In this document: one piece after another, positions 12,000 to 33,829 of the stretch
Position numbering within the stretch: position 1 is the stretch's first letter
Layout of the letters: each line of letters begins with the position of its first letter
Assembly (NCBI GenBank): GCA_964626665.1
Contig: CAZVGK010000025.1
Span: 1 to 54,455, forward strand
Reading direction: 5' to 3'
DNA: 54,455 nt
Origin: an uncultured Gemmatimonadota bacterium
GTDB lineage: Bacteria; SM23-81; DAOVCL01
Program-made: the position numbers and the translations under genes
The notes under the pieces: generated by a model
Databases searched by the model: none
What the model was told of the DNA's origin: nothing
The model's input: only the letters and a program-made list of their open reading frames with translations

Positions 12000-13127
12000 A
12001 TGGCACACGCATATACACCTGGACTGAAGGTTACCGAGAGGGAATTGGTGAGGAAGAAGAGGATCCTTCCCCTTAAGGGGGAGGTGGTGGTTAAGGAGGG
12101 GGATAAGGTCGAGCCCGATAAGGTGGTGGCTCGCACCCATCTCCCCGGCGATGTTATCCCCATCAATGTGGCCAATATCTTGGGCCTTCCCCCTGAAGAT
12201 GTTCCTGAATGTATGAAGAAGAAAGAGGGGGAGGAGGTGGAGAAGGGGGAGGTGATCGCTTCCAGCAAGAGCTTCTTTGGCCTTTTTAAATCTCAGGTAA
12301 AGGCCCCGGTAGGAGGAACGGTGGAGAGCATATCCAATGTCACCGGCCAGGTCCTCCTGAGGGGGGAACCTCTTCCGGTAGAGGTTAAAGCCTACCTGGA
12401 TGGGGAAGTGGTGGAGACCTATCCCCAGGAAGGAATCCTCGTCCAGACCTGGGCTACCTTTATCCAGGGGATATTTGGCATTGGCGGAGAGACCCACGGG
12501 GAGCTGGTCATCCTCTCCGGCAATCCCAGTGAGGTTCTTACCGAGAAGGAGATAGACAAAAACTGCCAGGGAAAGATCCTGGTGGGGGGCAATCTAGTCA
12601 CCTATCAAGCCCTAAAGAAGGCTATTGCGGTAGGCGCCAAAGGGGTAGTGGCCGGTGGATTTAACGACAAGGATCTAAGGGAATTCCTGGGCTATGACTT
12701 AGGGGTCGCCATCACTGGATCTGAGGAGTTAGGGATAACCTTGGTCATCACCGAGGGATTTGGGGAAATTAATATGGCCGAGAAGACATTTGAGCTCTTA
12801 AAATCTAAGGAAGGTAAACTAACCTGCATAAACGGCGCTACCCAGATAAGGGCTGGGGTTATCAGACCGGAGGTGGTTGTTCCCATTAAGGATGGGAAGG
12901 GTGTAGAGGCTAAGTCGGAGGCCGAGAAGGGTATGGGACTAAAGGTGGGAAGCCCGGTGAGGGTGATTAGAGAACCTTACTTCGGCAGGTTGGGCAAGGT
13001 TTCCGCTCTTCCTCCTCAACTGCAGAAGTTGGAAACAGAATCGAAGGCCCGGGTTCTGGAGGTGGAATTTGGGGATGGAAAGAAGGCCATTATCCCCCGA
13101 GCCAATGTGGAGACCATTGAGGAGTAA
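12000..13127 (+). CDS. Conserved hypothetical protein with barrel-sandwich (lipoyl/NqrA/RnfC-N-like) repeats and C-terminal KOW/SH3-like domain
   Basis: Start MAHAYTPGLKV after a strong RBS; VKEGDKVEPDKVVA and KKEGEEVEKGEVIA..VKAPVGGTV hybrid motifs; GLKVGSPVRVIREPYFGRLGKV. Confidence 0.75.
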   Translation: MAHAYTPGLKVTERELVRKKRILPLKGEVVVKEGDKVEPDKVVARTHLPGDVIPINVANILGLPPEDVPECMKKKEGEEVEKGEVIASSKSFFGLFKSQVKAPVGGTVESISNVTGQVLLRGEPLPVEVKAYLDGEVVETYPQEGILVQTWATFIQGIFGIGGETHGELVILSGNPSEVLTEKEIDKNCQGKILVGGNLVTYQALKKAIAVGAKGVVAGGFNDKDLREFLGYDLGVAITGSEELGITLVITEGFGEINMAEKTFELLKSKEGKLTCINGATQIRAGVIRPEVVVPIKDGKGVEAKSEAEKGMGLKVGSPVRVIREPYFGRLGKVSALPPQLQKLETESKARVLEVEFGDGKKAIIPRANVETIEE

Positions 13128-18248: not shown

Positions 18249-19463
18249 ATGGAGAATTCCTTCAGATGGCCAACCATCGTTCTCCTATCATTTTTTGCCC
18301 TCTCAACCCTATTTCTTACCTATGAGGCCCCGGCTCAGATTCAACCGCCCGCCGGGGATAGGCCAGAGGTAGCAGACACCATCCCTCCTCTTCCCCCCAC
18401 CAATCTCCAGGCTGTGGATACCCCTAACGATGCGGGGAAAAGAATTACCCTCACCTGGACCAAATCCCCCGATGATGGCGCTGGAGCAAAGGATGTGAAG
18501 AATTACCAGATTCTAAGGGCAGAAAGGAGGGATGGCCCATACGAGATGATTGCCGAACTGGCCATCGGGGCGGTAAGGTATGTTGATACCACCGCAAAAG
18601 ACGGAGTTGACTACTACTACAAGGTAAGCGTCTCGGATGGAATAAATACCTCCGAGGCCCCTCCCAGCCAGGCGGTGTGCTCCAAAGCTCAGTGGTTTAA
18701 CCTCAAGAGGTTAAATATGCTGATTGCTGGTATTATCCTCTCTCTGGGCATAATCTATTTCATCAATAAGGCTAAAGCTGGAGGGGAACTCTATATCCGC
18801 AAGATAGCGGGACTGGATGCCGTAAATGAGGCCGTGGGACGGGCCACGGAGATGGGGAGAAAGGTATTTTTCATCCCTGGGATTATGGACTTGGACAATG
18901 TTCAGACCATAGCTGGGCTGAGCATTTTGGGGCAGGTGGCCAGGCTTACAGCTGAATACGGGACCGAATTGGAGGTGCCCGTCTGTAGGTCGGTGGTGAT
19001 GGTCACCGGAAGGGAGACGGTCAAGGAGGCCTACCTGGATACTGGCCATCCAGATGCCTACCACGATGAGATCGTTCATTATCTCACAGATGACCAATTC
19101 GGATATGCTGCCGGCGTAGATGGGTTGATGCTCAGGGAGAAGCCGGCAGCCATCTTTTATCAGGGAGCTTTCTATGCTGAATCCCTCATCTTAGCTGAGA
19201 CAGGTTTTTCTGTGGGGGCTATTCAGATCGCCGGGACGGGTATGCCCTCTCAACTGCCGTTTTTCATCACCGCTTGTGATTACACTCTGATAGGAGAGGA
19301 GCTTTTTGCCGCCTCTGCTTATCTCTCTCGGGAACCCAGGTCCCTGGGCAGTATCAAGGGACAGGATTTGGGCAAGGCAATTATTCTGGTAATCCTCATT
19401 TTGGGTGTGGTCCTGGAAACCTTCGGATTCACCGGATTTTCCCAACTTTTCACCACCCAATAG
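18249..19463 (+). CDS. Module gene A1: signal peptide + FN3 + TM + DUF6754-like domain + TM
   Basis: PPTNLQAVDTPNDAG..ITLTW..Y.I.R..YYYKV (FN3); IAGLDAVNEAVGRATEMG; QLPFFITACDYTLIGEE. Confidence 0.85.
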   Translation: MENSFRWPTIVLLSFFALSTLFLTYEAPAQIQPPAGDRPEVADTIPPLPPTNLQAVDTPNDAGKRITLTWTKSPDDGAGAKDVKNYQILRAERRDGPYEMIAELAIGAVRYVDTTAKDGVDYYYKVSVSDGINTSEAPPSQAVCSKAQWFNLKRLNMLIAGIILSLGIIYFINKAKAGGELYIRKIAGLDAVNEAVGRATEMGRKVFFIPGIMDLDNVQTIAGLSILGQVARLTAEYGTELEVPVCRSVVMVTGRETVKEAYLDTGHPDAYHDEIVHYLTDDQFGYAAGVDGLMLREKPAAIFYQGAFYAESLILAETGFSVGAIQIAGTGMPSQLPFFITACDYTLIGEELFAASAYLSREPRSLGSIKGQDLGKAIILVILILGVVLETFGFTGFSQLFTTQ

Positions 19464-19467
19464 CTTT

Positions 19468-19921
19468 AACCTGAATAATTTGTCTGCCACAAAGACACCA
19501 AGACCCAAAGTATTGATCAAGCAAATGTTTACAGATTAAGCAGTGAAACTCAGTTCAATAGATACTACTGGGGCCACTAAATAGGGTCTGTCTGAATTCG
19601 TCATTCCCGCACGCCGTTAGCGGGAATCCATTGCTGATTTTAAGTAGATTCCGGCTTAAAGATTGCCGGAATGACAAGAAATATGGGTATTTCCGGACAG
19701 ACACTAAAAGATTACATGTCATTGCGAGCGCAGCGAAGCAATCCAAACCTTTGAATGGGGGATTAAGACTGTGAGATTGCTTCGTCGCTACGCTCCTCGC
19801 AATGACCAATGAAGTACCAATGTGCAAACTATAATGTGATCTGAGTAATAAAGGTTTTTATGTTTGATTTTCTTAGTGACTTAGAGGCTTTGTGGCCAAA
19901 ATTTTCTGGGTAATTAGGATT
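19468..19921. repeat. Composite intergenic repeat element with nested palindromes
   Basis: AACCTGAATAA..GCCACAAAG.CACCAAG left end and TTTTTTATGTTTGAT..CTTAGTG right part shared with 48050-48443; nested GTCATTCCCGC..GCGGGAATCC and GTCATTGCGAG..CTCGCAATGAC palindromes. Confidence 0.7.
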
Positions 19922-19937
19922 AAGAAAGGGTCGGAAT

Positions 19938-20597
19938 ATGCGTAGGGAAATACCCCTTATTATCACAGGAATAACTGGGATAGCATTTATCATCGCCTAT
20001 TTCATCCCCCATCGCCCGTTCAATCTGATCCAGGACCTGTTCCAAACCTGGTTTCAAATCGTTGCTGCCTTTGCCATCATTTTGGGTGTATTAAACCTGA
20101 TAGTGGTAAATGGCAACAAAGTCTACAGGAAATCGAGAGGATGGGGCTATTCGGTGATTATCATCCTCAGTTTCTTGGTGATGGCAGGCATTGGCACATT
20201 CAATTTTGGGGGCAAGGCCTCCCCCTTAGAGGAGGGCACTCCCTTTATGTATCTTTTTCACAATGTCTATTACCCTCTAGGCAGCACGGTCTTTGCCCTT
20301 TTAGCCTTTTTTGTGGCCTCTGCTTCTTTCCGCGCCTTCAGGGCCCGTAATAAGGAGGCTGCCCTTCTCCTTGTGGCCGCCTTCTTTGTCATGCTGGGAC
20401 GGGTTCCCATAGGTGACTACTTAACCTCCTGGATACCTGTGAATTGGCTGCGGCTTTCTACTATAGCTAACTGGATTATGGCTTACCCCAATATGGCCGC
20501 CCAGAGGGCGATTATGATCGGCATAGCACTGGGAATTATCTCCACCTCCCTGAGGTTGATACTGGGGATAGAAAAATCCTATTTGGGTGGTGAATAG
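19938..20597 (+). CDS. Module gene B1: polytopic membrane protein
   Basis: About 6 hydrophobic helices; LLAFFVASASFRAFRAR, GRVPIG, YPNMAAQRAI and LILGIEKSYLGG motifs. Confidence 0.85.
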   Translation: MRREIPLIITGITGIAFIIAYFIPHRPFNLIQDLFQTWFQIVAAFAIILGVLNLIVVNGNKVYRKSRGWGYSVIIILSFLVMAGIGTFNFGGKASPLEEGTPFMYLFHNVYYPLGSTVFALLAFFVASASFRAFRARNKEAALLLVAAFFVMLGRVPIGDYLTSWIPVNWLRLSTIANWIMAYPNMAAQRAIMIGIALGIISTSLRLILGIEKSYLGGE

Positions 20598-20688
20598 GCA
20601 AAAGAATAACAGCCACCACGGAACCTCACGGAAAAAAGCAATTGAAAATTAAGAATTAAAAATGAGGTTTATGCTGATTCCTACTTTT

Positions 20689-20864
20689 CTGTGCTACAAC
20701 CTTGCAAGATCTTGTTTTTTGGACAAACTTTTTTAACCGCAAAGACGCTAAGATCGCGGAGAAAATAAAAAGCAAAAGAGAGATGAAATAAAACGATTAG
20801 TTAATATTCTTTAAACTTTGCGACTTTGCGGTTAATTATTTTATTGCGACTTTGCCGCGCTGTG
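20689..20864. repeat. Interspersed repeat (GCAAGATCTTGTTTTTT family)
   Basis: Related copies at 28403-28659 and, inverted, at 48115-48358. Confidence 0.7.
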
Positions 20865-20910
20865 CAAGTCCGTGGTTATAGGTGGTGAATAGGCAAAAGG
20901 AGAATAAGGG

Positions 20911-21753
20911 ATGAGAATTCTTGAAAAGACAATGGTTTTAGACCGTCGGATTATCTTTCTCTTAATTGCCGTGGCTGTGGTGGTGCCCCTGTTTATCCCC
21001 TTCCACCTGAAGATGCATCCCACCCCCGCTTCCCAAGGGCTCTATGATGCGGTTGAAAAACTCTCAAAGGGCTCAACAGTAATCATCTCCGGAGAGTATG
21101 ACCCAGGAACCGCACCGGAGATCCAACCGATGGTAAAGGGGGCTTTGAAGCATTGTTTCCGCAAGGGCATCAAAGTCATTCTCATGGGGTTGTGGCCACA
21201 GGGGCCAGCTCTGGAAGCACAAGCCCTACAGGAAGTGCTTGAGGAAACGGAGTTTGAGGAGATGAATCTCCAATATGGCCAGGACTATGTGAACTTGGGT
21301 TATAAGGCTGGTGGGCAAGTTGTTATCCAGTCAATGGGAACCAGCATACCCGCTACCTTTCCCACCGATATGGCAGGCACACCCATAGAGGAGTTATCCC
21401 TAATGAAGGAGATCCGTAACTTTGATGATATCACCTTCATATTGGACTTTTCTGCTGGAGATCCGGGAACGCCATTCTGGGTGATGTTCGCCCATGACAG
21501 ATTTCATGTCCCCATGGCCTCCGGGTGTACTGCGGTTAGTGCTCCTATGCTCTATCCTTACCTCCAGACCGGGCAATTGGCTGGCCTTTTAGGAGGATTA
21601 AAAGGGGCTGCAGATTATGAGTGGTTAACTAAATCACCGGGCACAGGGATTCAATATATGCCTTCCCAATCTATTGCCCATTTGGTTATTGTCATCTTCA
21701 TCATCCTCGGGAACATCGCCTTCTTTGTCACCAGGAAGAAGGGGGAAAGATGA
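20911..21753 (+). CDS. Module gene C1: membrane-anchored protein (N- and C-terminal TM)
   Basis: DRRIIFLL, YDP.T..E..PM, G.DYV.LGYK and LQTGQL.GLLGGLKGAA.YE motifs. Confidence 0.85.
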   Translation: MRILEKTMVLDRRIIFLLIAVAVVVPLFIPFHLKMHPTPASQGLYDAVEKLSKGSTVIISGEYDPGTAPEIQPMVKGALKHCFRKGIKVILMGLWPQGPALEAQALQEVLEETEFEEMNLQYGQDYVNLGYKAGGQVVIQSMGTSIPATFPTDMAGTPIEELSLMKEIRNFDDITFILDFSAGDPGTPFWVMFAHDRFHVPMASGCTAVSAPMLYPYLQTGQLAGLLGGLKGAADYEWLTKSPGTGIQYMPSQSIAHLVIVIFIILGNIAFFVTRKKGER

Positions 21754-22349
21754 GCACAAGTATCGAAGTATGGATTGCTGCTCTGCTAACCCTGGGGATA
21801 TTGAGTTTCCTATACAAAGACAACCCCTTTTATAAGGTCTCCGAATCAATCTTTATTGGGGTCTCCGCAGCATATTGGTTTGTCTATATGATCTATAATG
21901 TGATAAAACCAAACCTGATTGTTAACTTGAGGATGGGACAATGGTGGTATGCCTTTGCCGGCATCTTAGGGATAATGATGTTACTCCGTCTGGTTCCTAA
22001 AATTGGCTGGCTGAGTCGTTGGGCAGTTGCTTTTATGATCGGCACCGGAGCAGGCTTAAATTTCATCGTCTATCTGCAAAGTAATGTGATGAAACAGATA
22101 AAGGGAACTCTGGTCCCTCTCAATTCGATCGGAAATATCGTTATGATAGTCGGAGTAGTCACCGGATTGATCTACTTCTTCTTCTCTGCGGAGCACAAAG
22201 GCTTATTTGGCGGGGCGGCAAAGGTGGGGATTTGGTTCATTATGGTCTCCTTTGGAGCCTCCTTTGGCTATACGGTGATGGCCAGAATTTCCCTTCTCAT
22301 TGGAAGGATGCATTTCCTCTTTAGTGACTGGTTAAGACTTTTACACTGA
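21750..22349 (+). CDS. Module gene D1: polytopic membrane protein
   Basis: SFLYKDNPFYK, YFFFSAEHKG and FGASFGYTVMARISLLIGR motifs. Confidence 0.85.
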   Translation: MSTSIEVWIAALLTLGILSFLYKDNPFYKVSESIFIGVSAAYWFVYMIYNVIKPNLIVNLRMGQWWYAFAGILGIMMLLRLVPKIGWLSRWAVAFMIGTGAGLNFIVYLQSNVMKQIKGTLVPLNSIGNIVMIVGVVTGLIYFFFSAEHKGLFGGAAKVGIWFIMVSFGASFGYTVMARISLLIGRMHFLFSDWLRLLH

Positions 22350-22367
22350 GTCCGAATTATGCATTAG

Positions 22368-22441
22368 GTAGCCGCAACCTTTAGGTTGCGTAAATGGTTG
22401 ATTTATGAGGCATCTTTTCGCAGGCTAAAGCCTGCGACTAC
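22368..22441. repeat. REP-like inverted pair (GTAG type)
   Basis: GTAGCCGCAACCTTTAGGTTGCG ... CGCAGGCTAAAGCCTGCGACTAC. Confidence 0.65.
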
Positions 22442-22508
22442 CTATCCTATGGTTTTTGTAGTAGAACCATTATATCAACCGATAGAATAATCATTCGTGA
22501 ACCGATAA

Positions 22509-22568
22509 ACCTAAACAAGTCGCTGTAGCCGGCGGTGTTAGCTCCGCCGCCGAGCTTAATCGTTATAC
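22509..22568 (+). other. attC site (canonical type, slightly degenerate)
   Basis: ACCTAAAC-AAGTCGCTGTAGCCGGCGG..CCGCCGCCGAGCTTAATC-GTTATAC. Confidence 0.65.
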
Positions 22569-22599
22569 AATATGAGAATACCTATGAAAGGACTCACAG

Positions 22600-22938
22600 A
22601 TGAATGAGATGATAGCTTTTTGCGGTTCAGCCTGTCAGGAGTGTGAAGCGTTCGTGGCAACAAGAAATGACGATGACCAAAAGAGAGCGGAAATAGCACA
22701 GCTCTGGTCAAAGCAATATAATGCAGACATTAAATCTGAAGATATTAATTGTGACGGTTGCAAATCAGTGGGCACTCGTCATTTCAATTATTGCAATGTG
22801 TGCGAAATCAGGAAATGCGGAATGGGAAGAGGTGTCGAGAATTGTGCTTATTGCAATGACTATACCTGCGAAAGGCTCGAGAAGTTCTTTGAGATAGCAC
22901 CAGATAATAAAAAACGATTAGATGCGATAAGACGCTGA
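22600..22938 (+). CDS. DUF3795 Cys-rich protein (cassette)
   Basis: IAFCGSACQEC, INCDGC, CEIRKC and ENCAYCNDYTC motifs. Confidence 0.88.
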   Translation: MNEMIAFCGSACQECEAFVATRNDDDQKRAEIAQLWSKQYNADIKSEDINCDGCKSVGTRHFNYCNVCEIRKCGMGRGVENCAYCNDYTCERLEKFFEIAPDNKKRLDAIRR

Positions 22939-22964
22939 CGTTTGCTTCCAAGCAGATCACAATC

Positions 22965-23043
22965 GTCTAAAAAATCACTGAACTTGACGCGGTAGTGGTA
23001 AACGCTGGCGCGTTGACCCCACAAGTTAGTTCTGACGTTAGGC
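22965..23043 (+). other. attC site
   Basis: GTCTAAA..CACTGAACTTG ... CAAGTTAGTTCTGAC-GTTAGGC. Confidence 0.65.
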
Positions 23044-23096
23044 GGCTGGTTACCGTTGCACAAAAGGTTTGCATTGGAAGGAGCATAGATTGGGGT

Positions 23097-23369
23097 ATGG
23101 ATGTGAAAACAAAGGGACAGCTTAAATTGCTAGGGCGCTATATCGTCGCTGACCCTGAAATTTGTCACGGTCAGCCAACTTTTCGGGGCACACGCATCTT
23201 CGTAGCAGATGTTCTGGAGCAAGTCGCTAGCGGAATGGCTTGGGAGGCTATCATTGAGGAATGGAACGGTAGCATCACCAAAGAGGCCATTGCCGAGGTA
23301 GTGCAGTTAGCCAGCCAGGCGTTGCTCAAACACACGGACGAGTTTATATTGGAGCCAACGCCCGCTTGA
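23097..23369 (+). CDS. DUF433 antitoxin (cassette)
   Basis: IVADPEICHGQPTFRGTRI motif. Confidence 0.9.
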   Translation: MDVKTKGQLKLLGRYIVADPEICHGQPTFRGTRIFVADVLEQVASGMAWEAIIEEWNGSITKEAIAEVVQLASQALLKHTDEFILEPTPA

Positions 23370-23755
23370 ACATTCTGGACGAGAACATCATCAAGAGTCA
23401 ACGCCAATTGTTGAAAAGCTGGCGGATTCCAATTCGTCAAATCGGCTACGAGGTAGGACGGAAGGGAATGAAAGATGATGAAATTATCCCCTTTGTGCTC
23501 CGACTACGCCGTGCCACTTTCTTCACACGTGACTTAGGTTTTTATGAGCGCAGTTTATGCCACAACCGATATTGCTTGGTCTGCATGGCTGTTGAGAAGC
23601 ACGAAGCGGCTGTTTTTGTACGGCGCTTGCTTGGTCACGGGGACTTTGACACACAAGCGAAACGAATGGGCACAGTCATCCGCGTCTCTCGAAAAGGTCT
23701 TTCGGTATGGCGTCTCCACGCAGAAACAGAACAATTCCTTGACTGGGCTGAGTAG
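23366..23755 (+). CDS. PIN-like (DUF5615/Mut7-C type) toxin
   Basis: ILDENI, G.KDDEII and TFFTRD.GF motifs; 4-bp overlap with the DUF433 gene. Confidence 0.78.
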   Translation: MNILDENIIKSQRQLLKSWRIPIRQIGYEVGRKGMKDDEIIPFVLRLRRATFFTRDLGFYERSLCHNRYCLVCMAVEKHEAAVFVRRLLGHGDFDTQAKRMGTVIRVSRKGLSVWRLHAETEQFLDWAE

Positions 23756-23919
23756 CAGACGGGAGCCGCAGGGCATCTGCCTGCCGACCTACGAAACGCG
23801 GCGGGATGCCTTATCCTTTACACCATCACATAAGTAGAGCGTCACATTTGAAGCAAGCCGCCTAAGTGAAAAATAGAGCAAATATGGAGGGATCACACCT
23901 TTCGCTTGCGGGAAAGAAA

Positions 23920-24355
23920 ATGAGAGTGTACCTGGACAACTGTTGCTTCAACCGCCCTTTCGATGATCAAAGCAAGATCAGAACCAGGCTCGAAGCAGAG
24001 GCCAAGCTTCATATTCAAGAAAAGATTCAGCAGAAACGATTGGAGCTTGTATGGTCATATATCCTGGATTATGAGAACCTGATGAATCCGTTTGCTGAAA
24101 GGAAGAATGCAATCCAGAAATGGAAACAGCATGCGACAGTTGACACAGGAGAGACACAGGACATTCTGGACAAGGCGAAAACACTGAAGGAGCGAGGACT
24201 GAAAAGCAAAGATGCCCCTACACATCGCCTGCGCCATTTACACGAAGTGTGAATACTTCCTGACCACCGATGACGCAGTGCTCAAGAAAACACGAGATTT
24301 TGACGAGATCCGAGTGGTTGATCCACCTACGTTCGTCCGCGAGGTAAACCTATGA
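23920..24355 (+). pseudogene. PIN-domain toxin with +1 frameshift
   Basis: RVYLDNCCFNRPFDDQS; an extra C in the C4 run at 24215-24218 breaks DALHIACA..YFLTTDD, whose frame ends ATGA-coupled to the antitoxin. Confidence 0.85.
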
Positions 24356-24561
24356 TAACAGATACAGAAATCAAGCTAAGAGGCCTGAGGGCCCTTGCAG
24401 ACGCCCTCGGAGAGGTCCACGCAGAGAGATTTATTACTCTAATCATGCGTGAGCCTTTTAACTACACAGAATGGCAGAAGCAACTTTGGCCGGACAGAGG
24501 TGTCGAAGATATCAGTAAGTTTGCCATGCAGAGTCGCCATTCTGAAGTCCGCAAAGACTAA
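24352..24561 (+). CDS. Putative antitoxin
   Basis: MITDTEIK..G..AL...LG.V.AERFI.LI.REPF.YT.W pattern; coupled to the PIN gene. Confidence 0.75.
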   Translation: MITDTEIKLRGLRALADALGEVHAERFITLIMREPFNYTEWQKQLWPDRGVEDISKFAMQSRHSEVRKD

Positions 24562-24572
24562 TTTGTCCGTTT

Positions 24573-24647
24573 GCCGAACAAGAGCATGCAGGCCGACGTG
24601 GTGTTCCGCTCTGCTCCACACCACGCGGCTGATGCTCGACGTTGAGC
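24573..24647 (+). other. attC site (canonical, 75 bp)
   Basis: GCCGAAC-AAGAGCATGCAGGCCGACGTGGTG ... CACCACGCGGCTGATGCTCGAC-GTTGAGC: R''/R' cores and near-perfect arms with unpaired extra bases. Confidence 0.85.
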
Positions 24648-24710
24648 CGCTTCGGACGGTTGCTCAAGCGCTGGGTAAGGAAATTGAGGACTGCTTTAAG
24701 AGTTAACCCC

Positions 24711-24833
24711 TGGATTTTGGTGATCGCCTTCGGCTTCGGGGCATCCTTTGACTTCGCCGTTATGTCCAGGATATCGCTTTTAATTGGCCGCATCCAATTT
24801 CTGATGGCAGACTGGCTGGGGATATTACACTGA
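24711..24833 (+). pseudogene. 3' remnant of a fourth module gene D
   Basis: WILVIAFGFGASFDFAVMSRISLLIGRIQFLMADWLGILH*, nearly identical to the D2 C-terminus. Confidence 0.85.
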
Positions 24834-25060
24834 GCCCGAATTATTAATGGGTTTTAGCCACCAAGTCACTAAGGATATGATGACTGAGCGGTCAGATGCC
24901 CTCGCCTGACCGTCTCCTGCCGAGCCGTCAGGTGCCCTCACCTGACGGTAGGAGAGGAGGGCGGCAGAATAGGGGTTCTGCCACCTCGCTTTTGAGATTT
25001 TATTAGATCTTAGTGCCTTTGTGGCACATGGATTACTCAGGTAAGGAAGGAGGAATTTAG

Positions 25061-26266
25061 TTGAACAAGAAACTTCAGACTAGAGACAAGGGCTGTCTGA
25101 GATGGTGGATACTACCACTGGCAGCCCTCATCTTTTTGTTGGCTCTTGGTGGAGGAGTTTGGGCACAATCCCCAGGGGATACCCTTCCCCCTTCCCCCCC
25201 TTCAGGGGTGACTGCCTTCGACACCCCCAACGATGCAGGGAGAAACATCACCATCGATTGGCAGCTCTCCCCAGATGATGTGAGGGGGGGGAAAACGGTT
25301 AAGGGGTATGACATCCTCAGGTCAGAGTCTCAGGAAGGGGAGTTCGAAGTGGTAGGCTCTGTGGTTGCCGGTATCTCCACCTTCCAGGATGACAAGGTTG
25401 ACAACCATAAAGGTTACTTCTACAAGGTGAAGGCCAAGGATCACCTCTTCTCTGAATCCGAGATAGTTGGTCCTGTTGAGACCAGTGGTCAATGGTATAA
25501 CACCAACAGGACAGTGGTATTGATTTTTGTGGTTCTTTTCACCACCTTGGTCATCTATTTTGTGAGTAGTGCCAAGAAGGGGAAAAAGCTCTATGTGAGG
25601 CCCATACCAGGGATGGATGCGGTGGATGAGGCCGTGGGAAGGGCCACGGAGATGGGTCGGCCTATCCTTTACATCCTGGGTCTGAGCACTATATCAGATG
25701 TAGCCACCATAGCCTCCTTAACCATCTTGGGGAGGGTGGCCAAAAAGGTAGCCGAGTTTCAAAGCAAGCTTATAGTTCCCTGCTATGACCCCATTGTGAT
25801 GACCGTGGCCCAGGAGGTGGTGAAGAACGCTTACCTGGATGCCGGTAGGCCAGATGCTTATGACGAAAGCAACATCTGGTTTCTCTCCCAATCTCAGTTC
25901 GCCTATGCCGCGGGGGTAAATGGGATAATGCTCAGGGAAAGGACAGCCACCAACTTCTACCTCGGTATGTTCTACGCCGAATCCCTCATCTTAGCTGAGA
26001 CCGGCAATATCGCCGGTTCCATCCAGATCGCCGGAACTGATGCGGTGGTTCAGTTACCCTTCTTCATTACCTCGTGCGATTATACTCTAATTGGAGAGGA
26101 ATTCTATGCCGCCTCTGCTTACCTCTCTCGGGAGCCGAAGCTTTTGGGTTCCATCAAGGCCCAGGACTGGGGTAAGTTGGGGCTCATTACCCTCATCATA
26201 TTGGGAGGCTTCTTTGCCAGTTTACACATTGATGCTTTTGTGAACCTCTTCACCGTGGGGCATTAA
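25061..26266 (+). CDS. Module gene A2 (FN3 + DUF6754-like)
   Basis: Paralog of A1: DTPNDAG, EAVGRATEMG and AESLILAETG motifs. Confidence 0.85.
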   Translation: MNKKLQTRDKGCLRWWILPLAALIFLLALGGGVWAQSPGDTLPPSPPSGVTAFDTPNDAGRNITIDWQLSPDDVRGGKTVKGYDILRSESQEGEFEVVGSVVAGISTFQDDKVDNHKGYFYKVKAKDHLFSESEIVGPVETSGQWYNTNRTVVLIFVVLFTTLVIYFVSSAKKGKKLYVRPIPGMDAVDEAVGRATEMGRPILYILGLSTISDVATIASLTILGRVAKKVAEFQSKLIVPCYDPIVMTVAQEVVKNAYLDAGRPDAYDESNIWFLSQSQFAYAAGVNGIMLRERTATNFYLGMFYAESLILAETGNIAGSIQIAGTDAVVQLPFFITSCDYTLIGEEFYAASAYLSREPKLLGSIKAQDWGKLGLITLIILGGFFASLHIDAFVNLFTVGH

Positions 26267-26280
26267 GCCAAGGGGGCTCT

Positions 26281-26901
26281 ATGAGGAGACAGATTCCACT
26301 GGCGATTACCTTTATCTGTGGAGTAGTAATGGCTATTCAGTTCTTTATCCCCCACCAGATCTCTCTTGAGGTATACCGTGGGGCCTTAGATTGGCTGATG
26401 ATCATCGCCGGCTTCACTATGGTTCTGGGGATTGGAAGCTTGATCATCCATCACACAAACAAACTGAAACATCAAGGGGAGGGATGGGGATATAGCGTGG
26501 TTACCCTGTTAGGGCTGGTTGTGATGGCCATTGCCGGGGTTCGCGGGATGGGAATCGACACGCCATTTATGCAGATCTTCATCTATGCCCAAAACCCCAT
26601 CCAGGCGACTATGTTCTCCCTCCTGGCTTTCTTTATCGCCTCGGCGGCCTATCGGGCCTTTAGGGCCAGATCGTTTGTAGCTACCCTACTCCTATTGGCA
26701 GCTATCATTGTAATGATTGGCCGGGTTCCCATTGGGGCTAAAATCTGGCCCCCTATTCGCGATATTTCCAACTGGCTGCTTGACTATCCCAATATGGTGG
26801 CCAAGAGGGCCATCGTCCTGGGAGTGGGGTTAGGAATGATCTCCACCGCCCTGAAGATAATCTTAGGCATTGAGAGATCCTACCTCGGTGGGGGAAAGTA
26901 A
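26281..26901 (+). CDS. Module gene B2
   Basis: Paralog of B1: LLAFFIASAAYRAFRAR and ILGIERSYLGG motifs. Confidence 0.85.
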   Translation: MRRQIPLAITFICGVVMAIQFFIPHQISLEVYRGALDWLMIIAGFTMVLGIGSLIIHHTNKLKHQGEGWGYSVVTLLGLVVMAIAGVRGMGIDTPFMQIFIYAQNPIQATMFSLLAFFIASAAYRAFRARSFVATLLLLAAIIVMIGRVPIGAKIWPPIRDISNWLLDYPNMVAKRAIVLGVGLGMISTALKIILGIERSYLGGGK

Positions 26902-26912
26902 GGAGAGAAATT

Positions 26913-27755
26913 ATGAATATATATGAAAAGATGATGTCCATAGATCGGAGGATTCTCTTTGTTTTAATTGCCCTTTCAGTGATTATCCCTCTACTTAAAC
27001 CCTTGTTGCTCCCAATAAATGTGACTAAAGAGGCCAAGCACCTTTACGAGTTTGTTGATGAGCTAAAGCCAGGCGATGTAGTTCTCCTCTCTTTGGATTA
27101 CGACCCATCCACGATGGCCGAATGCCATCCAATGGCTCTAAGCATCCTCAGGCAGTGTTTCAGTAGGGGGATAAAGGTAATCGTCACCAGCCTGGCCCGG
27201 CCAGAGGGGTTGGGAACCGCAGAGATGGCCCTTACTCAGGCGGCCAAGGAGTATCGGAAGAAGAACGGGGAGGACTATGTCTTTCTGGGTTATAAACCCA
27301 ATGCAGCAGCAGTGGTATTGGCTATGGGGGAAAATTTCAGATTAGCCTTTCCCAACGACTTCTACGGCAGCGATTTGGAGAATATCCCAATGATCAAGGG
27401 GCTAAAAAACTATAAGAACATTAGGATAGTAGTAACAGTTTCCGGATCAGCTATCATTGACACCTGGGTGATCTATGCTGGGGGGAGATATGGAGTTCCT
27501 ATCGGAGCTGGCGTCACCGCGGTTATGGCCACAGACTACTATAAATACCTCCAGTCTGGACAGTTGGTGGGACTCCTGGGAGGACTGAAGGGAGCTGCCG
27601 AATACGAGAAGCTGATCAAACACCCGGATATGGCTACCAAGGGGATGGATGGGCAGAATATAGCGCACTTAATGATTGTCTTTTTCATCATCATTGGAAA
27701 TATAGGCTATTTTTTAGGCAAAAAAGCCAAGGCCTCGAAAGGAATGGGAGGTTAA
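26913..27755 (+). CDS. Module gene C2
   Basis: Paralog of C1: LQSGQLVGLLGGLKGAAEYE motif. Confidence 0.85.
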   Translation: MNIYEKMMSIDRRILFVLIALSVIIPLLKPLLLPINVTKEAKHLYEFVDELKPGDVVLLSLDYDPSTMAECHPMALSILRQCFSRGIKVIVTSLARPEGLGTAEMALTQAAKEYRKKNGEDYVFLGYKPNAAAVVLAMGENFRLAFPNDFYGSDLENIPMIKGLKNYKNIRIVVTVSGSAIIDTWVIYAGGRYGVPIGAGVTAVMATDYYKYLQSGQLVGLLGGLKGAAEYEKLIKHPDMATKGMDGQNIAHLMIVFFIIIGNIGYFLGKKAKASKGMGG

Positions 27756-27756
27756 G

Positions 27757-28380
27757 ATGCATATCTCATCAAGCATAGGGATCTGGATAGCTGCCTTTTT
27801 GACCCTTTTTGTCTATTCCTTCCTTTACAAGGATAACCCCTTTTACAAGTTCGCCGAACATCTGGTGATTGGACTTTCCGGAGGATATTACATTGTGACA
27901 GTCTGGACTCAAATCCTTAAGCCAAAACTCTTTACTCCTCTCTTACAGCAGGGGAATCTTATCCTGATTTTCCCATTGATTCTGGGGCTTTTTATGTGGG
28001 CAAGGTTTATTCCCAAATACTCCTGGATTAGTCGCTGGGCCATAGCATTCACTCTGGGAGTAGGTTCTGGTATTTCCATCCCGTCTGTAATGCAAGCTAT
28101 GATAATAAGACAAATACAAGCCACTATGCTACCGGTTGGTTTCCACTCCTATATCGGATGGATGAATCTTTTCATCATAGTTGGGGTGTTGACTTCCCTT
28201 ATCTATTTCTTCTTCTCCGCCGAGCACAAAGGCTTCCTGGGTGTCTCAGCCAAGATAGGTATCTGGTTTATTATGATCGGATTTGGGGCCACCTTCGGCT
28301 ATACGGTAATGTCCAGGATATCCCTTCTAATTGGGCGGATCCAATTCCTGATGACCGACTGGCTGGGGGTTTTGCATTGA
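27757..28380 (+). CDS. Module gene D2
   Basis: Paralog of D1: SFLYKDNPFYK and FGYTVMSRISLLIGR motifs. Confidence 0.85.
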   Translation: MHISSSIGIWIAAFLTLFVYSFLYKDNPFYKFAEHLVIGLSGGYYIVTVWTQILKPKLFTPLLQQGNLILIFPLILGLFMWARFIPKYSWISRWAIAFTLGVGSGISIPSVMQAMIIRQIQATMLPVGFHSYIGWMNLFIIVGVLTSLIYFFFSAEHKGFLGVSAKIGIWFIMIGFGATFGYTVMSRISLLIGRIQFLMTDWLGVLH

Positions 28381-28402
28381 GGAAATAACCTTCACAGGAG
28401 CA

Positions 28403-28659
28403 GTTTACCACAATCTTGCAAGATCTTGTTTTTTTGACAAAGTTTTTTCAGACCACCTTGAGTTGCAGACTTCTACCGCATTTTAGTGCGGGTCACTATG
28501 GAGTACCCTAACACGGTCACAGCACTCCAAACGGGCTAAAGCCCTATCAACCCCGGCTAAAGCCGGGTAGAAGAAGACTTGAACGTTGAGTAGTTTTTTT
28601 GGTCTGTGTAATCCGTGTAATCTGTGGCCCTTGTTTGGTTGCGGCTTTGCTGCACTTTG
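28403..28659. repeat. Interspersed repeat with nested TTCTACC..GGTAGAA element (28471-28572)
   Basis: Outer element matches 20689-20864 and 48115-48358; inner element matches 32122-32174, 35391-35509 and 48202-48291. Confidence 0.7.
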
Positions 28660-28752
28660 AACTGTTATAAGGGAACATTACAGTCTTATGAGGAATTATC
28701 AAGATAATTCCAGAGCAGCCGCCCAAGGCTTTTTCCAACGATTATATTAAAA

Positions 28753-29904
28753 GTGAAAGACACATTGTCTAAAATTGTAATGGGGCTGATCCTCATTCTA
28801 TTTCTTCTTCCTTTGCACCTCTATGGAGAAGAAATTGCCCCACCCTTAACCGTAAAGGCCTTCGATACTCCCAATGATGGGGGTGGGTCTATAACAATCA
28901 CCTGGGAGTTATCTCCGGATGATAGCATACTTTCAGGCTATGAGATATGGAGGTCAGATCATCCAGATACAGGCTATACAATGGTTGGATATGTGGGAAG
29001 AGGAATAAAAAGTTATAAGGATGATAAAAAGGTAACAAATGGAGTAAGTTATCATTACAGAGTAAGAGGAAGAACAAGGGGGTACGAAATCTCTGCCTTC
29101 ACGGAAGCTCCCTCTCCTGTCGTATCGAGTTATCAATGGTACCACAAAGGCAAAACGAATGTCCTTGTGGCTATAATAGTATTTACTGGATTTTTGCTCT
29201 ATTTTATATTTAGTGCCAGGAAGGGAAAACCTTTGTTTATCCGCCAGATAGCAGGTCTTGATGCCCTTGATGAGGCGGTTGGTCGGGCTACAGAGATGGG
29301 GAAGCCCCTTCTCTATGTGCCCGGATTAGGGTATCTGGATGAGATAGCCACTATTGCGTCTATGAATATACTGGGCCGAATAGCGAAGAAAGTTGCGCAA
29401 TATAATACCCCCATAATGGTGCCGGTTGCCGATCCCATTGAAATGATGGTAGCGCGTCAGGTGGTTAAGCAGGGTTATCTTGAAGCGGGAAGACCAGATG
29501 CCTATAAGGAGGAAAGCGTTTTCTTCATCACCACATCACAATTTGCTTTTGCCGCCGCCGTAGCTGGTATTATGGTTCGTGAGAAACCAGCAACAAATCT
29601 ATTTCTGGGATGGTTTCGGGCGGAATCTTTGTTACTCGCCGAAACAGGCAATATGACGGGGGCTATCCAGATCGCTGGCACCGATCAGGTCTCACAGTTG
29701 CCGTTTTTTGTTACTGCCTGTGATTACACCATCATTGGTGAGGAGTTATATGCAGCCAGTGCCTATCTGGCAAAAGACCCCGTTCTCCTTGGTTCAATCA
29801 AGGCTCAGGATTGGCTAAAATTTATTATTCTTGTATTTATCGTAACTGGGACAGTAACAACTCTCCTTGGCATACCTTTTATTCGAATCCTGTTTAATAT
29901 CTAA
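28753..29904 (+). CDS. Module gene A3 (FN3 + DUF6754-like)
   Basis: Paralog of A1/A2: DTPNDGG, EAVGRATEMG and QLPFFVTACDYT motifs. Confidence 0.85.
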   Translation: MKDTLSKIVMGLILILFLLPLHLYGEEIAPPLTVKAFDTPNDGGGSITITWELSPDDSILSGYEIWRSDHPDTGYTMVGYVGRGIKSYKDDKKVTNGVSYHYRVRGRTRGYEISAFTEAPSPVVSSYQWYHKGKTNVLVAIIVFTGFLLYFIFSARKGKPLFIRQIAGLDALDEAVGRATEMGKPLLYVPGLGYLDEIATIASMNILGRIAKKVAQYNTPIMVPVADPIEMMVARQVVKQGYLEAGRPDAYKEESVFFITTSQFAFAAAVAGIMVREKPATNLFLGWFRAESLLLAETGNMTGAIQIAGTDQVSQLPFFVTACDYTIIGEELYAASAYLAKDPVLLGSIKAQDWLKFIILVFIVTGTVTTLLGIPFIRILFNI

Positions 29905-29914
29905 GGAAGAGACT

Positions 29915-30538
29915 ATGAGACTACGAATACCCCTAATAATCGCCTTTATATGTGGCTTTGGTATGATTGCACAATTTTTTATCCCACATCCACAATCACA
30001 GAAGATCTACACAACTGCACTTGATTGGGTACAAATCATATACATCTTTATGCTTGTATTTGGTGTCAGGTCCTTATGTATTTCGCATATTCGCAAGATA
30101 AAAAAACAGAAGGAAGGCTGGGCTTACAGTGTAATTACCCTTCTTGCCCTGGCAGTTACTACCGGGATAGGAGTACGCGGAGGCGTTGGGGAGGGTGCAC
30201 CAATCTCAAAGATATTCACCTATATGCAAATGCCAATGCAGGCAACGATGTTTTCATTGCTTGCCTTCTTCATCACTTCAGCGGCTTTTCGGGCCTTCAA
30301 GGCCAGAACATTAGAGGCAACCCTCCTTCTCGTCATCGCGGTAATCGTTATGTTCGGAAGAATACCGGTAGGAGAGCGACTCTTCCCAAAGCTCCCTGGT
30401 ATAGTTGAGTGGTTGTTGATGTATCCAAATATGGCTGCCCAGCGTGGAATCCTGATCGGCATTGGGCTGGGAGCAATAGGCACTGCTTTGAAGATAATAC
30501 TTGGTATTGAAAAGGGATACTTAGGGGGAGGAGGGTAA
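29915..30538 (+). CDS. Module gene B3
   Basis: Start MRLRIPL aligns with the B1/B2 starts; same conserved motifs. Confidence 0.85.
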   Translation: MRLRIPLIIAFICGFGMIAQFFIPHPQSQKIYTTALDWVQIIYIFMLVFGVRSLCISHIRKIKKQKEGWAYSVITLLALAVTTGIGVRGGVGEGAPISKIFTYMQMPMQATMFSLLAFFITSAAFRAFKARTLEATLLLVIAVIVMFGRIPVGERLFPKLPGIVEWLLMYPNMAAQRGILIGIGLGAIGTALKIILGIEKGYLGGGG

Positions 30539-31371
30539 TGCTCAAGCAATTTATGGAGATGGATAGAAGGTATATATTCCTCCTTGTGGGGATCTGTGTG
30601 CTCATTCCCCTTCTCCTGCCTATCGGGCTTCCTACCTTTACCACCAAACATGTGCTTAACCTTTACAAGGCTATTGATGCTATTCCTCCGGAGGGGCCTG
30701 CACTTCTCCTCGCCATTGATTTTGATGCCTCCACAGCAGCAGAGCTAATGCCTATGGCAAAGGCCATCCTTCGTCAATGCTTTGCCAAGAAGACAAGAGT
30801 TCTTGTCCTATCTCTATTTCCTGCGTGCTTAGGCATGGCTGAAATAGCAGTGCGGGAGGTATCCCAGGAGTTCGATGTAAAAAACGGTGTAGATTATGTG
30901 CTTTTATCTTATAAACCCGGTGTAACCGCTATAATGCTCTCCATAGGTGAGGATATATGCAAGACGCTGGAAACAGATTATTATGGAAATGATCTTAAGG
31001 ATCTCCCTATGATGGAAGATATTCATAATTATGATGATATTCCACTGTTGGTGTCCCTTGCAGGTAGTGATCTACCTACATATTGGGTAATCTATGTTGG
31101 TACTACTTATCATCAAAGGGTGGGTTGTGGCACCACTGCGGTTTCCGCCGCCCAATATTATCCCTGGCTCCAGACAGGTCAATTCGTGGGTATGCTGGGA
31201 GGGCTTAAGGGAGCGGCTGAGTATGAAAATTTAGTAGAGCGCGCTGGATATACCAGAGCAAGGAAGGTAGCTTCCATTGGAATGGAGGCCCAATCTATAG
31301 CCCATTTGTTATTGATTACACTTATAATACTGGGCAATATTGCTTATTTCACCTCAAGAAGGAAGGAATAA
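30538..31371 (+). CDS. Module gene C3
   Basis: LQTGQFVGMLGGLKGAAEYE motif; TAATG coupling. Confidence 0.85.
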   Translation: MLKQFMEMDRRYIFLLVGICVLIPLLLPIGLPTFTTKHVLNLYKAIDAIPPEGPALLLAIDFDASTAAELMPMAKAILRQCFAKKTRVLVLSLFPACLGMAEIAVREVSQEFDVKNGVDYVLLSYKPGVTAIMLSIGEDICKTLETDYYGNDLKDLPMMEDIHNYDDIPLLVSLAGSDLPTYWVIYVGTTYHQRVGCGTTAVSAAQYYPWLQTGQFVGMLGGLKGAAEYENLVERAGYTRARKVASIGMEAQSIAHLLLITLIILGNIAYFTSRRKE

Positions 31372-31973
31372 TGTCCCCAGATCCCTGGATATGGATAGCA
31401 GCGCTTTTGACTTTGTGTATATTCTCTTTCCTATATAAGGACAACCCATTTTATAAGTTTGCGGAACATTTACTTGTTGGCGTTTCAGTAGGTTATGCAA
31501 TTACCTTTTACTACCATAATGCGCTCATACCAAAGGTGTGGAAACCTCTGGTAATAAGAGGTGAATATCGGGTAATCTTCCCATTTATATTGGGCCTTTT
31601 GTGCTTTTCCATATTTTGGCCAAAAATCTCCTGGCTTATCAGATATCCACTTGCCTTTACTATGGGAACCTATTGTGGGATGGCTGTGCCTCGTCACTTT
31701 CAAGCTCGCATATTCCAACAACTACAGGGAACAATGATTACATCACTCAGTCTAAGCAATATCATAATGGTTGTCGGGGTAATTGCAACGCTTACCTATT
31801 TCTTCTTCTCCTTGGAGCATAAAGGAGTGGTTGGGAAAGTTGCCAAGTTAGGTATCTGGTATATAATGCTGGCCTTCGGGGCCGCCTTTGGCTATACAGT
31901 TATGGCAAGAATATCCCTGTTCATTGGGCGGCTTCAGTTCCTTCTCCATGATTGGTTGGGGTTGATCCATTGA
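31371..31973 (+). CDS. Module gene D3
   Basis: SFLYKDNPFYK and FGYTVMARISLFIGR motifs; TAATG coupling. Confidence 0.85.
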   Translation: MSPDPWIWIAALLTLCIFSFLYKDNPFYKFAEHLLVGVSVGYAITFYYHNALIPKVWKPLVIRGEYRVIFPFILGLLCFSIFWPKISWLIRYPLAFTMGTYCGMAVPRHFQARIFQQLQGTMITSLSLSNIIMVVGVIATLTYFFFSLEHKGVVGKVAKLGIWYIMLAFGAAFGYTVMARISLFIGRLQFLLHDWLGLIH

Positions 31974-32464: not shown

Positions 32465-33829
32465 ATGATGTCCATTCCCACCTTAAAATACGAAGCCGGA
32501 ACCATAATCCTGGAGAACCCAGGAAGGGTGAAGCTTCCCCCATTCTTTCTCTGGGACAAAAGGGAGAAAAAGTGGAGGGCAATGGCCCTCTACTATCAGG
32601 AGGCGATTAACTTTTTCCGCCTTCAGGGGATGGAAATCGTTAATAGGATTCCTCAATTCCCCCGGCTGGGTCTGAAGCTTCGCTCCCACTTTGATCTCAG
32701 ACCCTACCAGAGGGAGGCCATCGAGGCTTGGAGAAGGGTTGGCTATCGGGGGACGGTCGTTCTCCCCACCGGGGCAGGAAAGAGCTACTTAGCCTTAAAG
32801 GCTATATCCTTGCTGGATAGGAGCACTCTAATTATCCTTCCCACTATAGATCTAATGAACCAGTGGTATGGCCTCCTCAGGGATGGCTTTGGGATGGAAG
32901 TGGGCATCTTGGGGGGAGGCTACCATCAGATAGAGAAGGTAACAGTAGCCACCTATGATAGCGGCTATATCCATATAGACCGTTATGGGGATAGATTTGC
33001 CCTCCTTGTCTTCGATGAGGTGCATCACCTCCCTTCCCCCAAGTATTCCCACATCCCCCAGATGTCCATAGCCCCCTATAGGCTGGGCCTCACCGCTACC
33101 TATCGCAGGCCGGATGAGCTCCATCGTCGGTTGGGGGAGTTGGTGGGAAGGGTGGTCTACCAGAAGAGGGTTGCCGATCTAAAAGGTGAACACCTCTCGG
33201 ATTATGAGATCATCAGGCTGAGGGTGGGTTTAGCCTCTCAGGAAAGGAAGGAGTATGAGAGGAGCTTGCAGGATTATACAGGCTATGTGCGGGAGAAAAA
33301 GGTGAGATATTATGGCACAAGATGGGAGGATTTCATCAGGGAGAGTTCTTATAACGGCGAGGCGAGAAAGGCCCTTTTGGCCAGAAAAAAGGTTCACCAG
33401 ATAATCTACCATGCTCAGAGGAAATTGGAGATCTTGGAGGCCCTGATCAAACAACACCACCGGGAGAGGATGATCATCTTTACCCAGGACAACGAGTTCG
33501 TTTACCGCATCTCCCAGGCATTCCTTATCCCCTGTATAACCCATCAGACCAAAACCATAGAGAGGAAAGCCATCTTAGACCATTTCCGAAATGGGGATTA
33601 CCCCATCATCTGCACCTCAAAGGTTTTGAACGAGGGGATAGATGTCCCTGAGGCCAAGGTTGCCGTTATCCTCAGCGGAAGCGCAGCCCCCAGGGAACAC
33701 CTTCAAAGGTTGGGCAGGATACTGAGGAAAAGCTCAGGCAAGAAAGCCTTGCTTTATGAGGTGGTAGTCAAAGGGACAAAGGAGGTCCAGATCTCCTATC
33801 ACCGTCGGGGGAAGGATGCTCACCTCTGA
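32465..33829 (+). CDS. SF2 DEAH helicase, XPB/SSL2-like
   Basis: LRPYQREA, LPTGAGKS, DEVHH, GLTAT, LNEGIDVP and QRLGRILR motifs. Confidence 0.92.
   Translation: MMSIPTLKYEAGTIILENPGRVKLPPFFLWDKREKKWRAMALYYQEAINFFRLQGMEIVNRIPQFPRLGLKLRSHFDLRPYQREAIEAWRRVGYRGTVVLPTGAGKSYLALKAISLLDRSTLIILPTIDLMNQWYGLLRDGFGMEVGILGGGYHQIEKVTVATYDSGYIHIDRYGDRFALLVFDEVHHLPSPKYSHIPQMSIAPYRLGLTATYRRPDELHRRLGELVGRVVYQKRVADLKGEHLSDYEIIRLRVGLASQERKEYERSLQDYTGYVREKKVRYYGTRWEDFIRESSYNGEARKALLARKKVHQIIYHAQRKLEILEALIKQHHRERMIIFTQDNEFVYRISQAFLIPCITHQTKTIERKAILDHFRNGDYPIICTSKVLNEGIDVPEAKVAVILSGSAAPREHLQRLGRILRKSSGKKALLYEVVVKGTKEVQISYHRRGKDAHL

Follow-up and report, generated by a model that had tools for sequence, protein, structure and literature searches.

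The window analysed here is a 54,455-nucleotide (nt) stretch of DNA, the whole of contig CAZVGK010000025.1 (assembly GCA_964626665.1) from an uncultured Gemmatimonadota bacterium, and it carries three tandem units of four membrane-protein genes that we name A, B, C and D. The units span positions 18249-31973 and comprise 12 intact open reading frames (ORFs) in the window's ORF list, all on the + strand and three times in the order A-B-C-D (Table 1), as a sequence-only reading of this stretch had reported. That reading took the four genes for an uncharacterised membrane complex. The module is indeed real and conserved, since its gene order and co-occurrence are kept in hundreds of other loci and it matched no characterised complex, but the four genes are only half of the system: another gene, X, lies in the same window, and the gene of an actin-fold ATPase, Y, lies elsewhere in the genome together with R and S, the genes of two small membrane proteins. 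In this work, we describe the units and their partners by computational means, and we weigh the possibility that the units are translocation modules sharing one ATPase.

The genes within units 2 and 3 stand close together, separated by -1 to +14 nt, and C1 and D1 overlap by 4 nt. Unit 1 is otherwise looser, with gaps of 474 nt between A1 and B1 and of 313 nt between B1 and C1, both filled by dispersed repeats. The translational coupling described before as frequent thus applies to seven of the nine within-unit junctions and fails at these two, because the gaps of unit 1 hold the repeats. The start listed for B3, a TTG at 29867, overlaps A3 and is replaced in Table 1. All the motifs quoted as invariant (EAVGRATEMG; RAF.AR and YPNM; GGLKGAA.YE; SFLYKDNPFYK) are found in the translations of the three copies, RAF.AR being RAFKAR in B3. 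The whole genome carries exactly three genes with a DUF6754 domain, which are A1, A2 and A3.

Table 1. Genes of the A-B-C-D system and other features of the locus. Positions are those of the window unless another contig or locus is named.
Feature	Position	Strand	Description	Evidence
A1	18249..19463	+	Signal peptide, FN3, membrane helix, DUF6754 alpha/beta domain, C-terminal helix (predicted)	PF20539, 407 bits, E 3.3e-122
B1	19938..20597	+	Polytopic, all-helical membrane protein (predicted)	48-50% identity to B2/B3; no Pfam/NCBIfam family
C1	20911..21753	+	Helix, roughly 215-aa probably external domain, helix	40-43% identity to C2/C3; no family
D1	21750..22349	+	Polytopic membrane protein (predicted)	50-54% identity to D2/D3; no family
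A2	25061..26266	+		PF20539, 399 bits, E 7.3e-120; AlphaFold2 model
B2	26281..26901	+	Eight helices	AlphaFold2 model, pLDDT 80
C2	26913..27755	+		>2,396 relatives; Atlas model, pTM 0.86
D2	27757..28380	+		No family; Atlas neighbours unnamed
A3	28753..29904	+		PF20539, E 1.1e-115
B3	29915..30538	+		ATG at 29915 aligns with B1 and B2 starts
C3	30538..31371	+		Translation, identity to C1/C2, NCBIfam scan
D3	31371..31973	+		Translation, identity to D1/D2, NCBIfam scan
X	12000..13127	+	375-aa cytoplasmic protein: N-terminal barrel-sandwich hybrid, Gly-rich central alpha/beta part, KOW-like C-terminus (predicted)	Single-copy in genome
Y	C9:63227-65026 (other contig)		Roughly 605 aa, MutL/GlmL actin-fold ATPase domain	PF13941, 435 bits
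S	C9:62822-63223		120-aa small membrane-associated protein (predicted), precedes Y
R	L043 6483-6917 (G000:C9)		144 aa, two helices, precedes S
Small-gene blocks	14099-17041 and 22600-24252		Interrupt X-to-array and unit 1-to-unit 2 spacing
DUF3795 paralogues	14099-14485, 22600-22938
PIN-domain ORFs	14821-15282, 15430-15903
DUF433 gene overlapping 129-aa ORF	22995-23755		Resembles a toxin-antitoxin pair

The four subunits

Subunit A is the only one of the four that matches a curated family. The three A proteins match Pfam DUF6754 (PF20539) end to end, with E values of 1e-115 to 1e-122 and scores far above the gathering score of 27 bits. In the AlphaFold2 model of A2, which has a mean confidence (pLDDT) of 87, a signal-peptide helix is followed by an FN3 domain at residues 48-141, a membrane helix at 148-172 with KKGKK right behind it, six beta-alpha units at 183-356, and a last helix at 359-387; the layout of A1 was carried over from this model by alignment. 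The FN3 part superimposes on titin-type FN3 domains (Z 12.7, root-mean-square deviation 2.2 over 94 residues) and has a profile match to FN3 as well. Profile searches of the PDB with A gave FN3 matches only, and fold searches with the full-length protein were dominated by FN3 rows. A weak row for the LNS2 domain of Nir2 was not trusted as a relative of A (TM score 0.21-0.31, root-mean-square deviation 26). Among long A ectodomains, Pfam recognises nothing apart from a weak fn3.

The partners of A are more elusive. For units 1 and 2, no Pfam family was found for B, C or D at E<=0.1, no NCBIfam family matched these proteins in any of the three units, and PDB profile searches with them returned nothing at E<=1. 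B2 was modelled with eight helices (pLDDT 80), and its model, with a predicted template-modelling score (pTM) of only 0.58, gave no Foldseek match at E<=0.001 (best E 2.4) and none of 48,161 chains at Z>=8 in a VIA search (best Z 5.8 over 67 residues). Subunit C consists of two hydrophobic helices flanking a domain of 217 residues, and the short ends of the helices carry 3 and 4 lysine or arginine residues. Since these ends are rich in basic residues and the helices bracket the domain, the domain should be external. C has more than 2,396 relatives, and among the 120 matches listed, all are named 'hypothetical protein' except one 'acylphosphatase' (P0090). The neighbours of the C2 model in the ESM Atlas are all unnamed, and so are those of D2; Bacillota appear among the taxa of related Atlas clusters, a placement that is unconfirmed. 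The topology proposed earlier, with an external FN3 domain and an internal DUF6754 domain in A and a large external domain in C, agrees with the model of A and with the basic helix ends of C.

Rare B-C and C-D fusion proteins exist. Complex prediction with A (residues 142-401), B, C and D gave interface scores (ipSAE) of 0.69-0.71 for the partner and of 0.00 in two controls with a replaced partner, but the control with C replaced reached 0.75, so this prediction speaks neither for nor against a complex. The idea that A and C, and B and D, are ancient duplicate pairs was also tried and dropped, as hhalign gave probabilities of 0.8% and 0.7% and no relation is detectable.

Divergence and subtypes of the units

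The three copies are clearly diverged, sharing 40-59% of their residues. Identity between copies is 46.8-52.8% for A, 48.5-59.2% for B, 39.6-45.6% for C and 49.7-54.3% for D; comparisons across families align only 12-114 residues. The proportion of synonymous differences (pS) is 0.60-1.07, which is saturated, and that of nonsynonymous differences (pN) is 0.22-0.56, or 0.24-0.43 outside short signal-peptide and helix segments. Saturated synonymous sites with pN below pS mark the copies as old paralogues under purifying selection, neither recent duplicates nor decaying genes.

This divergence is not evenly distributed. The copies share 57-64% of their residues in the cytoplasmic DUF6754 domain, 41-46% in the FN3 domain, and 36-46% in the external domain of C. 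Across 136 units, the positions conserved in at least 93% number 59 in A, all of them in the helix and DUF6754 part, 29 in B, 17 in C and 29 in D. A sensor or signalling complex, in which the sensing of ligands by the external FN3 and C domains would be relayed to DUF6754, could share this layout, since a variable outside with a conserved inside is also the layout of a receptor. Nonetheless, no kinase, cyclase, HAMP, PAS or DNA-binding domain was found in A-D, X, Y or S (nor in R, for which Pfam alone was scanned), and four membrane subunits plus an ATPase exceed the needs of a sensor, which makes this alternative highly improbable.

The history of the units was followed in a FastTree phylogeny of concatenated A (DUF6754 part), B, C and D, with midpoint root and SH-like supports. 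The clade of unit 1 (support 0.94) contains 19 units, one from each of 19 loci, and 18 of them are the first unit of their own array; that of unit 2 (support 1.0) contains 30 units, one from each of 30 loci. Unit 3 falls in a clade of four, together with units from one Stahlbacteria-labelled and two unlabelled metagenome-assembled genomes (MAGs), within a mostly WOR-3 group. A genome of the same genus (G002) has orthologues of units 1 and 2 that are 84-85% identical to them, plus a third unit of a different subtype at the front of the array. We infer that the subtypes are old and specialised, and that units have been gained and lost. The earlier suggestion of paralogues that differ in specificity fits both the stronger divergence of the external parts and the one-unit-per-locus clades.

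Occurrence of the module in other genomes

Of the 27 A genes in 11 related genomes, 25 have B, C and D downstream in this order; the exceptions are one orphan A and one A-A-B-C-D run. Two A genes stand ahead of a single B-C-D at 7406-10057 of locus L027 (G028:C38), and a 241-aa orphan A, made of DUF6754 alone, lies at 4481-5206 of locus L029 (G039:C5).

A scan of species-representative genomes returned at least 593 loci, and 80 of these, all from MAGs, were kept for detailed analysis. They come from Zixibacteria, Ignavibacteria-labelled genomes, WOR-3, Poribacteria, Eisen-, Stahl-, Coates-, Edwards- and Latescibacteria. The expectation that profile and synteny searches would recover the four genes together is borne out here: 108 complete A-B-C-D units were found in 69 of the 80 loci, the remaining 11 are cut by contig ends, and none of the 80 shows another gene order. 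Within flanks of 8 kb, there is one unit in 44 loci, two in 11, and three in 14.

Triple arrays of one Zixibacteria/Ignavibacteria-labelled group are followed, in 10-11 loci, by the gene of a lysine-rich protein of about 105 aa and then by pyruvate phosphate dikinase (e.g., L051 12940-16334), and an ADP-forming acyl-CoA synthetase is added downstream in four of these loci. The lysine-rich protein was not found in the genome of the window.

The cytoplasmic partners

X and Y surfaced by clustering the flanks of the first loci, as two recurrent upstream genes. The ORF listed for X (11712-13127) begins too early, and a promoter-like site lies at 11952-11979, ahead of the start given in Table 1. 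X is 87% identical to the gene found 199 nt upstream of the first unit in the same-genus genome. Family scans detected an RnfC_N-type hybrid barrel in 12 of 15 X orthologues and a KOW domain in two of the 15. The barrel match is generic, as Biotin_lipoyl and M23 score too, and the PDB profile search gave generic barrel and KOW matches only (E>=0.03). No phosphocarrier histidine or cysteine is conserved in X. A relation of DUF6754 or of C to the central domain of X was considered and rejected (probability of 0.2% or less).

The barrel of X brings up the possibility of a membrane-bound enzyme or ion-translocating energy converter, in which DUF6754 would be catalytic and a chemical reaction or ATP hydrolysis would be coupled to the passage of ions, in loose analogy to Rnf/Nqr or the decarboxylase pumps. 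X opens with a hybrid barrel of the RnfC_N/NqrA_N type, and the subunit pattern superficially resembles RnfA/E plus RnfG, with two polytopic proteins of about 200 aa and a bitopic one with an external domain. DUF6754, the most conserved part of the module, carries about 14 invariant charged or polar residues and one invariant cysteine (29 sequences). However, besides the generic nature of the barrel match, no Rnf-Nqr, FMN-binding or Fe-S family was found in A-D, conserved cysteine pairs are absent, and a housekeeping converter is not expected in one to five diverged copies with variable ectodomains. We regard such a converter as quite unlikely.

Y keeps the motifs DxGSTxTK, DIGGATTD and GSGG, and the phosphate and adenosine motifs of the ASKHA superfamily are invariant in 11 orthologues, with which Y shares 48-89% identity in our sample. 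The PDB profile search with Y gave nothing at E<=1. No family of Pfam, NCBIfam or PADLOC names X or S, nor R, for which Pfam alone was searched. The genome of the window possesses the full set of X, long Y, R and S, with the last three in the order R-S-Y on contig C9. S directly precedes Y in 13 loci and precedes A in two divergent systems, R precedes S in 11 other loci, and one genome (G041) has the complete order Y-X-R-S-A-B-C-D. True Y-X fusion ORFs exist in two genomes as divergent second copies, of 958 aa (L042 5083-7959, G028:C35) and 979 aa (L130 3049-5988, G098:C1). X, with or without Y, adjoins the array in 10 of the 80 loci. An LpoA-like lipoprotein with TPR and Peripla_BP_6/LppC domains is encoded directly upstream of R-S-Y (L043 4482-6278, G000:C9).

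The distribution of these genes was surveyed in 121 genomes with a threshold of E<=1e-20, a long Y being one with over 880 bits; the genomes are mutually related and hence non-independent, and the counts are given without statistics. DUF6754 is present in 33 of the 121 genomes, with 64 copies in total and one to five per holder. X is found in 32 genomes (34 matches), all of them within the 33 holders of DUF6754, and in none of the 88 genomes without this domain. A long Y occurs in 32 genomes, 30 of which are DUF6754 holders, and G076 adds a divergent Y. Two genomes, G001 and G102, have Y only, with completeness of 90% and 85%. The 64 DUF6754 genes stand against 34 X matches; therefore, one cytoplasmic set would serve about two membrane units.

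Surroundings of the array

The repeats that loosen unit 1, at 19464-19937 and 20598-20910, are small, dispersed and hairpin-rich, and the genome contains 55 and 48 matches to them. A stretch of roughly 19 nt across the end of B1 recurs just before the start of C1, bracketing the second insert. Further repeat spots lie at about 13300-13990 and about 28440-28620. In four public DNA runs from salt marsh, contigs with 95-100% identity extend over the whole stretch and break at the repeats (13.3-14.0, 19.62-19.82, 20.68-20.78 and 28.44-28.62 kb). The junction between units 2 and 3 (28439-28623) is bridged by none of the contigs listed from these runs, and depth is equal on both of its sides in all four (about 70, 36, 5-16 and 20). 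A 2.7-kb insert of small genes, with DUF3795 and DUF433, occupies the usual place of a middle unit, and G+C falls to 36-41% at 14-18 kb. A promoter/terminator scan of the window performed no better than on shuffled sequences (27 against 32.6 expected).

Right after unit 3, at 32465-35045, lie an XPB-type helicase gene (ResIII/Helicase_C/XPB_DRD) and an overlapping DUF790 gene (Bax1-like nuclease), a pair of the archaeal XPB-Bax1 type. These are followed by the gene of a 1,558-aa protein (35883-40559) with a C25 gingipain-type peptidase, FG-GAP repeats and a type IX secretion C-terminal sorting domain; two more proteins with such a tail are encoded beside R-S-Y on contig C9 (L043 10367-14726). 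Polysaccharide genes, encoding FemAB-like, methyltransferase and Polysacc_synt flippase proteins, come next at 40675-44812.

The type IX secretion cargo and the polysaccharide genes of the window, together with the ExbB-type genes that adjoin units in five WOR-3/Stahlbacteria loci, would suit an export or assembly machine of the cell envelope, moving or anchoring a surface polymer, lipid-linked precursor or protein outward, with the FN3 and C domains acting on the outside and the paralogues serving different products. Proteins of envelope assembly often have FN3 and large external domains, and protein translocation is powered in other systems by actin-fold ATPases of the Hsp70 type, which also counts in its favour. 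Even so, 9 kb separate the polysaccharide genes from the units, and in the 80 loci such genes do not recur as neighbours. The unconfirmed listing of Bacillota among related Atlas clusters would mean that the system does not depend on one type of envelope, and the presence of several copies in a small genome suits nutrient uptake better, so that we consider envelope export unlikely.

Proposed mechanism

A variable outside combined with an invariant cytoplasmic domain, about two membrane units for each ATPase set, and the Y-X fusions lead us to favour an ATP-driven translocation machine. The conserved gene order, the phyletic coupling, the loci in which X, R or S adjoin the array or Y, the invariant ASKHA motifs of Y, the clades of units 1 and 2, and the rare B-C and C-D fusions also count in its favour. 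The A-B-C-D units would be its substrate-specific modules, sharing one ATPase and most likely working in uptake; we put this forward tentatively, as a reading that may well be wrong. Of the functions named in the sequence-only reading, which had left the choice between a transporter and an energy- or signal-transducing complex, the conserved module stands, and transport is the one that we would retain.

According to this proposal, each unit most likely encodes a four-subunit complex of the cytoplasmic membrane. A would supply the exported FN3 domain and the very conserved cytoplasmic DUF6754 domain, C would supply a large external domain, and B and D would form the membrane-embedded core. The three units of the window would be paralogous modules, and the common parts Y, X, R and S are encoded once per genome. 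Y-X, anchored at the membrane by R and S, may dock on the DUF6754 domain of any unit present, and ATP turnover might then drive a conformational cycle in B and D. The variable external parts, namely the FN3 domain of A and the external domain of C, would choose the cargo, most probably a nutrient to be taken up; both the direction of transport and the type of cargo are proposed here by analogy. In a bolder form, these would be interchangeable cargo-specific modules of an undescribed class of primary-active transporters, widespread in uncultured anaerobes, whose motor consists of a GlmL-like actin-fold ATPase plus X, unrelated to ABC, P-type or rotary ATPases. This extended version is doubtful at present.

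Several observations weigh against a translocation machine driven by Y-X. A-D, X, Y, R and S show no resemblance to a known transporter, channel or substrate-binding protein in the searches made, and the low-pTM model of B gave no structural match. The many invariant polar residues of DUF6754 could equally well belong to the active site of an enzyme or to a docking surface. No RNA family was found in the Rfam scan of the window, and thus no riboswitch or regulatory clue to a substrate, while the recurrent neighbours (pyruvate phosphate dikinase, ADP-forming acyl-CoA synthetase, ExbB) are each restricted to single lineages. In addition, the coupling to the ATPase is not absolute: G071, assembled as one contig of 5.0 Mb, has an intact A-B-C-D unit (L128 7855-10981, C1) with neither X nor Y found, and G022, with a marker-based completeness of 100%, carries X and three units with no Y found.

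These last two genomes are what would be predicted if A-B-C-D were an autonomous secondary transporter or channel, working without Y-X, with the co-occurrence reflecting a shared pathway rather than a physical machine. The distances between genes point in the same direction, as 70 of the 80 loci lack X and Y within 8 kb of the array and Y lies on another contig in the genome studied here. Against such autonomy stand the near-perfect phyletic coupling of X (32 of 33 holders, compared with 0 of 88 others) and the cytoplasmic domain, whose high conservation would be difficult to account for if it had no cytoplasmic partner. An autonomous transporter therefore seems improbable to us, and the ATP-driven machine with shared Y-X remains the favoured explanation.

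If it were correct, a whole class of ATP-coupled membrane machine would exist without a characterised member, in spite of its presence in 33 of the 121 related genomes sampled and in at least 593 species-representative loci, often in more than one copy per genome. Metabolic models of Zixibacteria, WOR-3, Poribacteria, Marinimicrobia and comparable uncultured groups have an 'unknown transporter' gap that would be closed in part, and the routine label 'glutamate mutase L' given to Y would be corrected. To this picture the window adds two units in widely conserved subtype clades and a third that groups with WOR-3/Stahlbacteria-type lineages, as well as external domains that diverge while the cytoplasmic domain is held constant; the comparison within the genus shows the gain and loss of units.

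Comparison with known systems

The closest catalogued items are the name DUF6754 and the GlmL family domain of Y. Pfam lists DUF6754 as a domain of unknown function, by name only, and its entry covers the A proteins and not their partners. No paper mentioning DUF6754 or PF13941 was found in the library searched.

The closest known relatives are those of Y, which has the same actin-fold ATPase domain as GlmL/MutL, the accessory protein of B12-dependent glutamate mutase, and its Or-4 relative of ornithine degradation (PF13941; NF040745, NF040744). Y differs from these in being about 150 residues longer and in its association with X, R and S rather than with a mutase. It falls below all three NCBIfam cut-offs for GlmL (232 against 475, 222 against 600, and 180 against 204 bits). 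The E subunit of glutamate mutase (GlmE, PF06368) was not found in the window's genome, which is 99.65% complete, and none of its seven B12-binding domains is encoded on contig C9. The genome paper of Dictyoglomus turgidum labels Dtur_1345-1347 'glutamate mutase' (PMC5167688), although the identity of these genes with the DUF6754 system is unverified.

Among membrane systems, Rnf/Nqr is alike in the hybrid barrel of X and in the set of two polytopic and one bitopic subunits, but no Rnf-Nqr, FMN_bind or Fe-S Pfam match was obtained at E<=0.1 and no redox cofactor motifs were seen. No ABC family was detected in A-D of units 1 and 2, in X, in the orthologues of X and Y, or in S. Anti-phage defence was addressed with PADLOC, which gave 0 matches for A2, B2, C2, D2, X, Y and S.

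The arrangement proposed here can be compared with energy-coupling factor (ECF) transporters and with phosphotransferase systems (PTS) having multiple EII components, in which one shared energising module serves several substrate-specific membrane paralogues. The analogy to ECF transporters and the PTS is one of organisation only, with no relation in sequence or fold: the ATPase that would energise the A-B-C-D units belongs to the actin fold and not to the ABC type.

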